Source: a virus
Virus record (IMG/VR): IMGVR_UViG_3300021091_000027
Location: 47,052-111,051 of that record
DNA length: 64,000 nucleotides
Reading direction: 5' to 3' (one strand)
Part shown: piece after piece, positions 2,923-64,000 of the stretch
Layout: each line of letters opens with the position of its first letter
Position numbering within the stretch: the stretch's first letter is position 1
Made by a program: the position numbers and the translations under genes
Notes under the pieces: model-generated
Told to the model about the DNA's origin: nothing
What the model saw: only the letters and a program-made list of their open reading frames with translations
Databases searched by the model: none

Positions 2923-3893
2923 TGTATGAATATTTTAAGACAGTAAGCTATCCATTAAAGGAATTTAACTCGGATTACTTTTCGGAGAATCAAAATGATG
3001 CTATAAAATCTACGATAGTAGATTTTGGCATCAATATATACGGTTTATCGCCAGAACTTGAAAATCTTATAATTGGGACACCTAGGATATTTTTAACAGA
3101 AATTGGATCCTCCGACTCCTATTCTTTAATACTTAAATTACAATTAATGATAACAATCGACGACTTAGACTTCTCTTTAGCTGGCGGGGACTTATCAGTT
3201 TCTACAGATACTCACCCAGCAAATGAAGAATTTATTAGAGTTTATTTTGATAGTGAGGACTTTGAATCGCCCGGCTTTATTATTGATGGATTTCTGTGCT
3301 TAAATAATTACTCAAAATTAATTAGAGTATTAGATGGAACAATCTTTAATCCTCCAAATATGGAATTTGAGCCTACAACTATAAATTTCTTTTCTAGGCA
3401 TAGGGTAAATAGTATAACTTGTAAAAACTCAAAGCCTCTAATAATGCAAAAAGCTAATGAGCTGATACACCAACCTCCACAGGATCCGGTATTTGGAGAT
3501 ATAAAGCTAGTGCCCGGAAATAATTGCACTATATCTGTGCGACCTCAAACTAATACAGTAATTATAGGGGCAGTTTTAAATGCTAATGACACCCCCGAAG
3601 AAATCTGCGGAGTGTGGAAAGATAAAATTTCAGGTACAGGTTCAAAAGATTTACTTTGTAGTGAAGTTGTGTATTCTATAGCTGGCGCAAAGCCAGATAA
3701 TTTTGGCAATATTGAAATACAGGCAAATACGCCTCTTAGTGTTAACGCTTTAGTAAAAGATGATTTACCAACTCCATTTAAAACTTTTATAAACGGATCT
3801 AGTTCAGAGTTTTCCCCTATAATACACTATATATACATAGGGCTCCCCCAATCTAATGGGAATTCAAGTGTATTTGATTGTCAAACGGAGTAA
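2922..3893 (+). CDS. Putative tail/baseplate structural protein (paralogue 3)
   Basis: 323 aa; TAATG coupling; VSYPL, GDIKLVPGNN and VYSIAGAKPDNFGNIEI motifs. Confidence 0.5.
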   Translation: MYEYFKTVSYPLKEFNSDYFSENQNDAIKSTIVDFGINIYGLSPELENLIIGTPRIFLTEIGSSDSYSLILKLQLMITIDDLDFSLAGGDLSVSTDTHPANEEFIRVYFDSEDFESPGFIIDGFLCLNNYSKLIRVLDGTIFNPPNMEFEPTTINFFSRHRVNSITCKNSKPLIMQKANELIHQPPQDPVFGDIKLVPGNNCTISVRPQTNTVIIGAVLNANDTPEEICGVWKDKISGTGSKDLLCSEVVYSIAGAKPDNFGNIEIQANTPLSVNALVKDDLPTPFKTFINGSSSEFSPIIHYIYIGLPQSNGNSSVFDCQTE

Positions 3894-60011: not shown

Positions 60012-60147
60012 ACGCTATTCCTTAGTAGCGCTGAGGGTGTAAAAATACCCCCTGTTTGTGTTATACATACATGCAGGATCTATAGGTATTCCAATAACTC
60101 TGTTGGACCACCAAAACAATGTAGATCCTTCAAGAAAGAGGAAACAC

Positions 60148-60684
60148 ATGAGTAACGACGTTACTGAAGATTCGCACCGGATCGCCTCGACGCTTGACCG
60201 CATGTTCCAACGTGCGGACTCGCTACCTGACAGTGCGGACCCCTGTACGGAGACTGCCTACCTATGGCATGGAACTCCATTCTCAGGACCCCACGGGTTG
60301 AATGTGCTGGATCATAAGTTGCCGATGACCTGCATCCGCAGTCTTGGCACGTACTCTCAGCTGGTGGAAGAAGGCGCTGATTCCGTAGTGGCGCTTCTTG
60401 GAGACCACGACATTCCATCTCAGTGGCACTGCAACTGGATATACCTTTGCGGCATAGGAGCCAGGAGATTTGTGGTTCAGTTCTTTACTCCAGGCTACGT
60501 GGAGAAGGTGGGCCGAGACGGGGATGAACCAATTCGCTTTCCTTACAAGATCGTTGGTCGGGGCTGGGTCACTGGTCTGCATGCCGGCACCAAGACTGAC
60601 GAAAAGATGTACGCGATCGTGTACAAGGAGGTAAACGATAAGCAGGTTACTGACTCCAAGGGTGGAAAGGACCCGGTGTCCTAA
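60148..60684 (+). CDS. Hypothetical protein
   Basis: ATG 60148 with GAGGA RBS, downstream of a promoter motif and leader hairpin. Confidence 0.6.
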   Translation: MSNDVTEDSHRIASTLDRMFQRADSLPDSADPCTETAYLWHGTPFSGPHGLNVLDHKLPMTCIRSLGTYSQLVEEGADSVVALLGDHDIPSQWHCNWIYLCGIGARRFVVQFFTPGYVEKVGRDGDEPIRFPYKIVGRGWVTGLHAGTKTDEKMYAIVYKEVNDKQVTDSKGGKDPVS

Positions 60685-61960: not shown

Positions 61961-62067
61961 TGCCCTAAAATAAGGGTTAAAACGTGGTATAGATATATAC
62001 ACCGGTCCTATAGGTATTGCTGGGCGTTCCAGAGTACCCAATAGGCCACATTAAGGAGATAGTGTCA

Positions 62068-62568
62068 ATGAAGAAGACCCTTTTGTTCGTGTTGTCTGTG
62101 TTTCTCGCTATTGGACTACCGATGGTGCTGATCTGGGGAGCTTATCAGACTGCCGTTGCGGCGACAAATGCTCCAACAGTTCCGGCCATCCCGGTCGTCC
62201 TGGACTCAGGCGAACGCTGGTACGACCCATTCTCATGGGGATTGGATGAGGCTGCGGCAATCGCAACTCAACAGGCACAAGAAGCTGCCACCCGCACGAC
62301 TAAAGCCGTGACGACGTGGACTAGCAGTATGTTCCTGCTGACTGGCCTTCTGGTTACCATTGCAGTCGGTATTTGGAGTGGAGTTAGAGAGCAATCACAG
62401 CTCAAAAACTCCTGGCAGAAGTTTCGCATCGAGTCGTTAGGTGGTGAAATGACTTCTGGTTCAACTCCAAATCAAGTTCCTCCTAATTCGGAAGACACCG
62501 ATACGGAAGAGCAAGACTCGGTAGTAGCTGGGAAGGCCGCAAAAAGCCATCCTAACCAGCGCCGCTGA
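62068..62568 (+). CDS. Two-TM membrane protein
   Basis: ATG 62068 after TAAGGAG; two hydrophobic helices. Confidence 0.7.
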   Translation: MKKTLLFVLSVFLAIGLPMVLIWGAYQTAVAATNAPTVPAIPVVLDSGERWYDPFSWGLDEAAAIATQQAQEAATRTTKAVTTWTSSMFLLTGLLVTIAVGIWSGVREQSQLKNSWQKFRIESLGGEMTSGSTPNQVPPNSEDTDTEEQDSVVAGKAAKSHPNQRR

Positions 62569-62587: not shown

Positions 62588-62624
62588 CCCGGGCGCCCTG
62601 TACAGGGCGCCCGGGCTCTCTTTT
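62588..62624 (+). terminator. GC-rich hairpin/terminator
   Basis: CCCGGGCGCCCTG-TA-CAGGGCGCCCGGG followed by CTCTCTTTT. Confidence 0.65.
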
Positions 62625-62635
62625 AACAAAACATT

Positions 62636-62712
62636 CTCGACTATGCGAGTATAAATAGGGTATTAAGCATAGTGCGTTCATATAAATCTACGAATTTATA
62701 CTGAGGTTACTC
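62636..62712 (+). ncRNA. Pistol self-cleaving ribozyme
   Basis: P1 CUCG/CGAG; loop ACUAUG pairs with CAUAGU (pseudoknot); UAAAUAG linker; P2 GGUA/UACU; UUAAG; conserved GCG; P3 hairpin; predicted G62706/U62707 cleavage site. Confidence 0.9.
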
Positions 62713-62849
62713 TAGTCACAGCTTGAGAGCTACGAAGAAGTGAAACAACTTCGATATGCTCTAGTTTCACAAGACTCATGACTAACTAGCAGATGTAGTT
62801 CAGGGTCCCTACCTCTGTTAGAATTGAGGAACAATATGAGACCTTACAT
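62713..62849 (+). ncRNA. Putative structured small RNA downstream of the pistol cleavage site
   Basis: Nested stems UAGUCA/UGACUA, AGAGC/GCUCU and CGAAG/CUUCG; 7-bp pseudoknot GUGAAAC/GUUUCAC; second domain AUGUAG/UUACAU, GGUC/GACC, CCUC/GAGG. Confidence 0.5.
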
Positions 62850-62851
62850 GG

Positions 62852-62887
62852 GCACACTGTGGGGAAACCCACAGTGTGCTTTTCTTT
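62852..62887 (+). terminator. Intrinsic terminator
   Basis: 12-bp stem GCACACTGTGGG/CCCACAGTGTGC, GAAA loop, TTTTCTTT. Confidence 0.85.
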
Positions 62888-63052
62888 GGCAGTAATCTTA
62901 TAGATTTACTTGAATCAACTAAGTTGCCGCCAAAAAGTTGCATACGTACCGATGTAACTAAAAAAATAAAGTATTAGCGGTACAAACACACACAGCATGT
63001 AGGTATTGCTGGGCGTTCCAGACTACTTATATGTGCATTTGGAGACAACAGC

Positions 63053-63841
63053 ATGAATATCGTTAGGAGTATTTTTTCAAACATTGTTTGTTTCGGCATT
63101 GGCGTCATGGTTGCAAGTTTTTATGCGGCTTCGTCGGCAGCTACGGCTTCGTCGGCAGCTACGGCTCCGTCAGCAGCTGCGGTTCCATCGGTGGCTGTGG
63201 TTCCATCGGTGGCTGTGGTTCCATCGGCAGCTGCGGTTCCATCGGTGGCTGCGGCTTCGTCAGCAGCTACGGCTCCGTCGGCAAATAAAACTTTGGCACC
63301 AATTCTGATGTTGCCTGATTCGAATACCCCTAAGATTCTTAATAGTCTTTCAGATCGAATCAGATCGGCAAATTCGGCAGTAAAACGCGCTGATGAGCGT
63401 TTGCAGTCACTGCAGGAAGATCAGAAAAAGTCGGTCAGCACTAGCCAGATTCTGACGGAACTAGTGCCCGTCTACTACGAAGAGGACTACTCAACTCTTT
63501 ACGCAGAGGCGAAAACAGCAGGAGTCGAAATGATTCCTCATTTTGGTAACACCATAAAAACGGCATACACTTTAGCCAATAAAGAGAATATGCCGGAAGT
63601 TCGCATTGTGAAAATTGCCAAGGTTACCCGCCTTGGCAGCGCCTTCACAGTGCAAGTCTTGGACCAGTCCACCTTACACCTACCAGAGTACGAAGACCTC
63701 ATCGAGTTTATCGCTACTAATGGTGGAAATTCTGAGACTTTGGAGATAATTCAGGTGGAACGCATAAATGATGAGCGCGAGCTTGAATCATTAGCGAACC
63801 CCACTTGGAGTCAGTTCTTCAAATGGTGGTGGAACAGCTGA
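63053..63841 (+). CDS. Membrane-anchored protein with Ala/Ser/Val repeats and a coiled coil
   Basis: GGAG RBS; N-terminal TM; 6-aa repeats; Trp-rich C-terminus. Confidence 0.7.
   Translation: MNIVRSIFSNIVCFGIGVMVASFYAASSAATASSAATAPSAAAVPSVAVVPSVAVVPSAAAVPSVAAASSAATAPSANKTLAPILMLPDSNTPKILNSLSDRIRSANSAVKRADERLQSLQEDQKKSVSTSQILTELVPVYYEEDYSTLYAEAKTAGVEMIPHFGNTIKTAYTLANKENMPEVRIVKIAKVTRLGSAFTVQVLDQSTLHLPEYEDLIEFIATNGGNSETLEIIQVERINDERELESLANPTWSQFFKWWWNS
63126..63282 (+). repeat. Imperfect 18-bp coding tandem repeat (about 8 units)
   Basis: TCGGCAGCTACGGCTTCG / TCGGTGGCTGTGGTTCCA-type units encoding SAATAS/SVAVVP. Confidence 0.85.
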
Positions 63842-63882
63842 GCAAGTACCAAGGTTGGGTGTCATCCATAAACACCATCTTT

Positions 63883-64000
63883 CTCGACTATGCGAGTATA
63901 AACGTTAGACAAGGGTCTAAGGTCATAGTACATCCCACATAGATCAGCAGGTCTGTGTGGGTGTGGGTTTTTAATCCCACTTCAGCTGAAGACCTAACCC
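63883..64000 (+). ncRNA. Pistol-scaffold-derived structured RNA (non-canonical; may run past the window end)
   Basis: 22-nt block identical to the pistol 5' half, retained CAUAGU pseudoknot partner, additional hairpins; lacks the GCG and GU core. Confidence 0.55.

Follow-up and report, generated by a model that had tools for sequence, protein, structure and literature searches.

An uncatalogued family of ~170-nt phage RNAs, predicted to combine two hairpin-type pseudoknot domains with an intrinsic terminator, directly downstream of pistol ribozymes

The DNA analyzed here (the window) makes up the final 64 kb of an uncultured virus record from lake water that is 111 kb long and that CheckV estimated to be 62% complete. 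The source DNA was matched by 23 sequencing runs, all of them lake-water DNA contigs, and no RNA run was listed. Within the window, a membrane-protein gene (62068-62568) is ended by a GC-rich terminator-like hairpin of 12 pairs, 11 of them G-C. A pistol self-cleaving ribozyme follows 20 nt later and leads directly into a structured segment that is closed by an intrinsic terminator. The features of the locus are the following.

62588..62615, plus strand: GC-rich terminator-like hairpin that ends the upstream membrane-protein gene.
62635..62711, plus strand: pistol self-cleaving ribozyme (Rfam RF02679).
62707..62887, plus strand: predicted released RNA, identified by its fold, by covariance model R1 (54 bits, E 1e-13) and by covariation.
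62713..62784, plus strand: domain 1, from the MFE fold and class-specific P1 helices.
62740..62770, plus strand: pseudoknot 1, from RNAalifold on a MAFFT alignment and from covariation.
62786..62821, plus strand: P4 hairpin of domain 2, from the MFE fold and covariation.
62804..62843, plus strand: pseudoknot 2, from covariation between classes.
62844..62849, plus strand: conserved single-stranded UUACAU, from alignments A1 and A4.
62850..62887, plus strand: intrinsic terminator with a 14-bp stem, GAAA loop and U tract, from a hairpin scan and covariation.

The released RNA would therefore be read in the order 6-nt 5′ tail, domain 1, domain 2, terminator and U tract. Four nucleotides of the tail are the 3′ strand of pistol helix P2, and helix P1 of the released RNA begins one nucleotide past that strand. 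The UUACAU at 62844-62849 belongs to a near-invariant sequence, UACAUGGG, which continues into the terminator. Terminator-like hairpins likewise lie 5′ of the pistol in the related loci L029 and L016. A promoter scan between the upstream hairpin (62588-62615) and the pistol found none. With a strong hairpin 20 nt before the pistol and no promoter found between the two, it is doubtful how much transcription reaches the unit.

Pistol ribozymes have been known since 2015 and are chemically well understood, and their biological role is open. The window copy scored 46.4 bits against a gathering score of 34.5, with a full-length match to model positions 1-68, and pistol is the sole Rfam family above threshold in the whole 64-kb window. 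The match covers P1, the loop pseudoknot, the A-rich linker, GCG, P3, the G|U junction and P2. The G|U junction places the predicted cut at G62706|U62707, which bears out the 5′ boundary that the earlier note had set at the ribozyme cut. The pistol is the immediate 5′ neighbor of the released RNA and shares its first five nucleotides. These five are the only part of the released RNA inside the RF02679 match, with nothing more at E up to 10; the match stops at 62711, and the RNA lies 3′ of the cut and outside the ribozyme model. The published class and the window copy are both phage-associated, and the published pistols are without a defined biological product (Harris et al. 2015, PMC4604425).

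Two more pistol-like elements were observed, one at 63882-63975 of the window and one in locus L311, ~150 nt beyond the window end. Both retain P1, its loop and the pseudoknot partner CAUAGU, and both have ACA instead of the GCG core and a long hairpin (CCCACA...GGUCUGUGUGGG) instead of P3. The element at 63882-63975 scores 16 bits, and neither copy has the two-pseudoknot RNA after it. L005 also has a pistol of the same subtype as the one at 62635-62711, but with another downstream sequence (~60-245 nt past the pistol), which consists of ~150 nt and a terminator-like hairpin and may be a further ribozyme-released RNA.

A homologue search and a covariation check, both proposed in the earlier note, were carried out on viral and lake metagenome contigs and yielded at least 24 distinct relatives. 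Among the relatives listed, the length from cut site to U tract is 167-177 nt, which gives comparative support to the earlier proposal that the RNA is a discrete unit running from the ribozyme cut to a terminator. A pistol lies directly upstream in all but two of those listed, the exceptions being L223, which is without a pistol, and a contig that is cut off. The exact 5′ part of the window pistol is present in 37 viral contigs, and 12 of the 37 have the same downstream layout. We also ran a scan blind to the pistol, using the RNA's own motifs UGAAACA, GUUUCA and ACAUGGG with variable gaps. This returned 51 loci. Those with both the fold and a terminator, taken as true members, comprised the known sequences and six additional ones, and each of them sits directly 3′ of a pistol; the pistols include three different P1-loop/pseudoknot variants. 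The other ~35 matches were chance occurrences in coding DNA. A pistol-linked pattern without the ACATGGG motif added no members. No relative was found by blastn among GenBank phages (50,697 records), which gave one 42-nt chance match. One genome from each of 185,579 prokaryote species gave 84 pattern matches. These were ranked by hairpin energy only, and the 14 with the most stable downstream hairpins were inspected; none of the 14 had the fold or the terminator, and none was a member.

Covariance model R1 was built from the 14 best-aligned sequences with nested helices only, and 23 sequences were aligned to it. In this alignment 92.1% of cells pair, compared with 30-47% when the 3′ partners are slid by 1-3 columns, and 48 of the 60 pairs change on both sides; the 23-24 sequences represent only about seven sequence classes. 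No shuffle matched the observed values. Both pseudoknots are absent from R1, so the covariation that supports them is unbiased by the model. Single-sequence duplex z values for P1/P2 and pseudoknot 2 ranged from about +1 to -3.9 and were not individually significant, and the support for those helices therefore rests on covariation.

The 181-nt stretch from the cut to the end of the U tract folds at -62.7 kcal/mol (z = -4.76 against dinucleotide shuffles), and none of 200 shuffles folded as well. For domain 1, the earlier note had drawn three nested stems and a pairing between the apical loop and a strand further 3′. The three stems (P1, P3a and P3b below) were recovered where they had been drawn, and RNAalifold found the loop pairing (pseudoknot 1) unaided. 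The helices of domain 1 are the following.

62713-18 with 62779-84, plus strand: P1, UAGUCA/UGACUA.
62720-24 with 62771-76, plus strand: P2 of domain 1, with A62774 bulged.
62726-30 with 62758-62, plus strand: P3a, AGAGC/GCUCU.
62733-37 with 62749-53, plus strand: P3b, CGAAG/CUUCG, enclosing an 11-nt loop at 62738-48.
62740-46 with 62764-70, plus strand: strands of pseudoknot 1, GUGAAAC/GUUUCAC.

In the clade to which the window belongs, R1 aligns P1 out of register. P1 was accepted there because four different 6-bp helices occupy the same place across the relative classes: UAGUCA/UGACUA, AUUCAA/UUGGAU, GUUAUC/GAUAAC and UUAGCA/UGCUAA. Compensatory changes were seen in five of the seven P3b pairs. 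Pseudoknot 1 behaves differently: six of its pairs are invariant and the seventh covaries (UA 12, AU 3, GC 2, GU 2). Both it and the terminator were recovered by RNAalifold from a plain MAFFT alignment with no guidance, and its half-sites are 14 to 19 nt apart across the relatives. An invariant sequence amid freely covarying helices suggests a constraint beyond pairing itself, possibly contact with a protein or ligand, a tertiary interaction or intermolecular pairing.

Domain 2 and the terminator contain the following helices.

62786-98 with 62809-21, plus strand: P4, 12 bp with an internal 1x1 mismatch and a loop at 62799-62808.
62804-07 with 62840-43, plus strand: strands of pseudoknot 2, P4-loop GGUC with GACC.
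62850-63 with 62868-81, plus strand: terminator stem, with the GAAA loop and then the U tract.

Here the analysis departs from the fold first proposed. The earlier note had assigned AUGUAG/UUACAU, GGUC/GACC and CCUC/GAGG as stems of domain 2. The first and last of these are not conserved: 53% of their cells pair, against 38-60% in slid controls. The GGUC/GACC pairing stands as a pairing and falls as a nested stem. The MFE fold and covariation place the 12-bp P4 hairpin there, with double-sided changes in all 12 pairs across relatives, which makes GGUC/GACC a second pseudoknot from the P4 loop to a strand further 3′. Its sequence differs by class (GGUC/GACC, AACCC/GGGUU, AUCCUU/AAGGAU), with per-pair counts of CG 17/GC 3, CG 17/UA 3/UG 3 and AU 17/GC 3. 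The two domains thus share a topology in which an AU-rich linker separates a hairpin from the more 3′ strand that pairs with its loop. With the AUGUAG/UUACAU and CCUC/GAGG helices also goes the idea of two similar internal loops (CUAC on one side, AUAUG on the other): the CUAC of domain 2 is paired within P4, and the repeated AUAUG falls in the AU-rich linkers, which vary between relatives. A two-copy protein-binding loop acting as a decoy or sponge had been suggested from this resemblance, and we do not retain it, since the motif is unconserved and depends on the domain-2 fold that covariation rejects. The GAAA-capped terminator placed after domain 2 was found as described, with double-sided changes in 11 of its 14 stem pairs.

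Three of the relatives deserve description. In L223 the RNA is preceded by two terminator hairpins and a sigma-70-like TTGGCT-18-TATAAT site ~95 nt upstream, arranged as an independent RNA gene would be. The L223 hairpins (2960-3200, minus strand) are two near-identical terminator-like hairpins with a G-GAAA-C cap and a third, related hairpin between them. The RNA's own terminator in L223 is a further relative of these, which suggests homogenization of terminators within the phage. L007 (492-632, minus strand) and L039 (12206-12346, plus strand) hold a variant that scores 38-40 bits with R1 and retains domain 2, pseudoknot 2 (AACCC/GGGUU) and the terminator. Its domain 1 differs from that of the other members: it starts ~60 nt past the pistol and has a GUGAAC hairpin loop with a possible partner, GUUUAC, upstream.

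By cmsearch, the window's record and three complete genomes of 67-69 kb each contain a single full-length copy. In the latter phages (loci L319-L330) every gene lies on one strand, and there are two RNA-polymerase-like genes. One is a canonical T7-like polymerase of ~815 aa (~284 bits to PF00940), and the other, of ~630 aa, is divergent and lies shortly before the RNA. The distance from the divergent gene to the unit is 0.5-1.3 kb. After the unit come small genes that form a conserved block and a DUF932 gene, with the canonical polymerase ~6.5 kb further on. The lineage of the window encodes a family-A DNA polymerase, and no RNA polymerase of that kind was found in the 111 kb of its record, which is estimated to be 62% complete. 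A 622-aa ORF of the window was compared with the RNA-polymerase-like gene of the other lineage and proved unrelated. By BLASTP the two lineages have one protein in common, and both carry the pistol-RNA-terminator series. The shared protein had no Pfam match in a screen for a phage-encoded partner. A cassette present in two lineages that share one protein points to a self-contained module and argues against the need for a phage-specific partner.

Other genes near the unit gave no RNA-related and no toxin-like match in Pfam or PHROGs; the matches were a trypsin-like protease, a destabilase-type lysozyme, a metallophosphoesterase, DUF932 and RNA polymerase. Pistols of this subtype have a terminator within 300 nt almost exclusively in this RNA family; most of the others lead straight into genes.

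Several further features of the surroundings were recorded. An identical 23-nt motif, with a TAGGTATT core followed by a CTGG/CCAG hairpin, occurs at window positions 62011-62033 and 63000-63022. These are its only copies in the 111-kb record, and they lie 30-55 nt ahead of the start codon of the gene on each side of the RNA; past the window end, in L311, a related version is found in front of the next gene. A family of hairpins of the form CCCACAnAGAUC-loop-GGUCUGUGUGGG plus a U run is found at window positions 63934-63961 and at 7890-8225 of L029, a close relative in which the hairpin occurs three times within 350 nt upstream of the pistol. The RNA-polymerase phages have a related hairpin of this type directly 5′ of the pistol. 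Two paralogous ORFs, 60058-60684 (208 aa) and 63053-63841 (262 aa), matched nothing in Pfam or PHROGs; homologues of them occur in L029 and L021. In a comparison of the window with L029, the genes surrounding the RNA stand in a rearranged order.

The released RNA matched no family among the 4227 models of Rfam 15 at E up to 10, apart from a chance overlap with nqrA-II (17.8 bits against a gathering score of 55, E = 9) that was driven by the terminator hairpin. This agrees with the earlier note, which had not recognized it as a known family. Its relatives gave pistol and tRNA matches only, ARAGORN found no tRNA or tmRNA in the window, and literature searches returned no description of this RNA. 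Considered as a stand-alone processed small RNA, the element has predicted 5′ and 3′ ends that are defined and a conservation that appears independent of its neighbors, and the ribozyme cut and terminator are present in nearly all members. A type III antitoxin RNA of the ToxI kind, which consists of tandem pseudoknot repeats beside an endoribonuclease toxin, was rejected, as the RNA is present in single copy in the four phage records searched, with no toxin-like neighbor by Pfam or PHROGs. Three smaller resemblances were judged coincidental: an 11-nt GAAA-receptor-like UAUGG...CCUAA in clade B, which conflicts with the covarying P4; the likeness of UGAAAC to crRNA tags; and a likeness to tRNA-Phe anticodon/codon pairs.

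The phi29 pRNA (RF00044) is a ~170-nt phage RNA whose function needs a loop-to-loop pairing of 4-5 nt of the AACC/GGUU type. The present RNA resembles it in being phage-encoded, ~170 nt long and furnished with loop pairings, and by this precedent its pairings may form between molecules. It differs in having no cmscan match to that family and another fold, in being carried by phages that are not phi29-like, and in its ribozyme, since pRNA is not ribozyme-made. The best comparison for how the unit may work is with the theta-ribozyme/tRNA units of gut phages, in which a theta (HDV-like) ribozyme sets the tRNA 3′ end (Kienbeck et al. 2024, PMC10879173). There too a small phage ribozyme abuts a structured RNA and cuts at the end of that RNA, and by analogy the ribozyme would replace a processing enzyme. 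In contrast to the theta units, the ribozyme here is a pistol, the end that is set is the 5′ end and the product is not a tRNA.

The alternatives to a free-standing RNA differ in what they make of the terminator and of the pistol. Leaders classically consist of a structured domain, then an intrinsic terminator, then a gene on the same strand, as is the case here, and a conserved pseudoknotted domain of ~135 nt directly before an intrinsic terminator is shared with transcriptional riboswitches and attenuators. As a cis-acting, riboswitch-like leader or attenuator, the domain would sense a ligand or protein and set stopping at 62850-81, thereby dosing the downstream genes. In some relatives the next start codon is only 15-45 nt past the U tract, and invariant pseudoknot 1 and conserved UACAUGGG could make a binding pocket. 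However, when RNAalifold was run on alignment A4 minus the terminator 3′ half, no conserved alternative partner for the terminator 5′ strand appeared and columns 186-221 stayed unpaired, so that termination looks constitutive. Pseudoknot 2 stops short of the terminator stem, with no overlap between the two. The cluster of the first downstream ORF changes from locus to locus, as does the gap to it (15 to ~490 nt), and in the window a separate leader motif, 120 nt further on, belongs to the next gene. A transcriptional riboswitch or attenuator is disfavored by the lack of a conserved antiterminator, of a constant related downstream gene and of any Rfam riboswitch match at E up to 10, and we regard the leader reading as unlikely. 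If a phage polymerase ignored the terminator, the released RNA would become a 5′ leader, and in such terminator-passing transcripts a 5′-OH plus a knot could shield the downstream mRNA. The position of the unit in the 67-69 kb phages, between the divergent RNA-polymerase-like gene and the next block, would suit such an end-protecting or insulating element without a function of its own, as would the many pistols of the same subtype that directly precede ribosome-binding sites. In a variant of this idea P1, which begins one nucleotide after the 3′ strand of the 4-bp pistol P2, would stack on that helix and aid ribozyme folding. Against both, ~60 conserved pairs and invariant loop nucleotides exceed what protection or stacking needs; a covarying terminator and U tract in every member work against a leader role, and the window's lineage has no phage RNA polymerase found in 111 kb. 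We think this distinctly unlikely.

The nearly obligate coupling of pistol and RNA, and the start of the RNA inside pistol helix P2, could also mean that the knotted domain is an allosteric partner, turning pistol cleavage on or off when a ligand or protein binds to it. Nature offers examples of a sensing domain in tandem with a ribozyme (glmS, and c-di-GMP-II with a group I intron). Yet the RNA showed no alternative pairing with the pistol core, L223 retains the RNA without any pistol, and ~60 nt separate the pistol from conserved domain 2 in L007 and L039, which together make an allosteric role improbable. The six pseudoknot-1 pairs that never vary and the nearly invariant UACAUGGG would also be expected of a signal in the DNA, whether an origin, an operator formed by the inverted repeat TGAAAC...GTTTCA or a phage promoter with the end ...ACAT|GGG. 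The unit indeed sits in a regulatory region in the RNA-polymerase phages, beside the polymerase genes and with long non-coding gaps after it. But the strand-specific G-U pairs and the compensatory changes in 48/60 pairs, including the seventh pair of pseudoknot 1 and all of pseudoknot 2, speak against this; the half-site spacing varies from 14 to 19 nt, and one copy of the motif per genome is ill-suited to a promoter. We hold a DNA-level signal to be highly improbable. A short peptide is scarcely credible. A 19-codon ORF does start at ATG 62836, with a second ATG within UACAUGGG, and the rest of the region would then be UTR; however, the matching AUG in L016-type relatives reaches a stop after two codons, the second AUG is missing in L024, L012 and L021, there is no Shine-Dalgarno sequence, and the ORF crosses a terminator stem that evolves by paired, stem-preserving changes.

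On the comparative evidence, the pistol-RNA-terminator unit and its fold are very probably real, and what follows the ribozyme appears to be an uncatalogued family of ~170-nt phage RNAs with two hairpin-type pseudoknot domains and an intrinsic terminator. That the released RNA is a separate, free-standing, ribozyme-released non-coding RNA acting in trans is our preferred reading, and we judge the chances for and against it to be about even. From the sequences we infer cleavage in vivo, a 5′-OH end, accumulation and stability of the RNA, trans action and a host partner. The unit would be transcribed together with the pistol directly upstream, which would cut itself off and leave a defined 5′-OH end 6 nt before the first helix, and the terminator would set the 3′ end. 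The product would most likely be a nuclease-resistant, free-standing non-coding RNA made once per genome, probably acting in trans on a host component and not on the neighboring genes. Its most plausible mode would be protein binding through the invariant face of pseudoknot 1. More speculatively, and in our view with rather little likelihood, the unit may be a horizontally mobile cassette whose RNA is a decoy or inhibitor of a host protein, serving anti-defense or host takeover, or a multimer self-assembled through UGAAAC/GUUUCA.

The released RNA would be a new two-pseudoknot family common to unrelated freshwater phage lineages. Sharing of this kind is the pattern expected of self-sufficient modules such as host-directed or anti-defense RNAs. 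The near-invariable coupling of the pistol to one RNA suggests that its job here is to make the exact 5′ end of a structured phage RNA. If the unit is indeed an effector-RNA cassette, the pistol ribozyme would gain its first defined biological role, in maturing an effector RNA.
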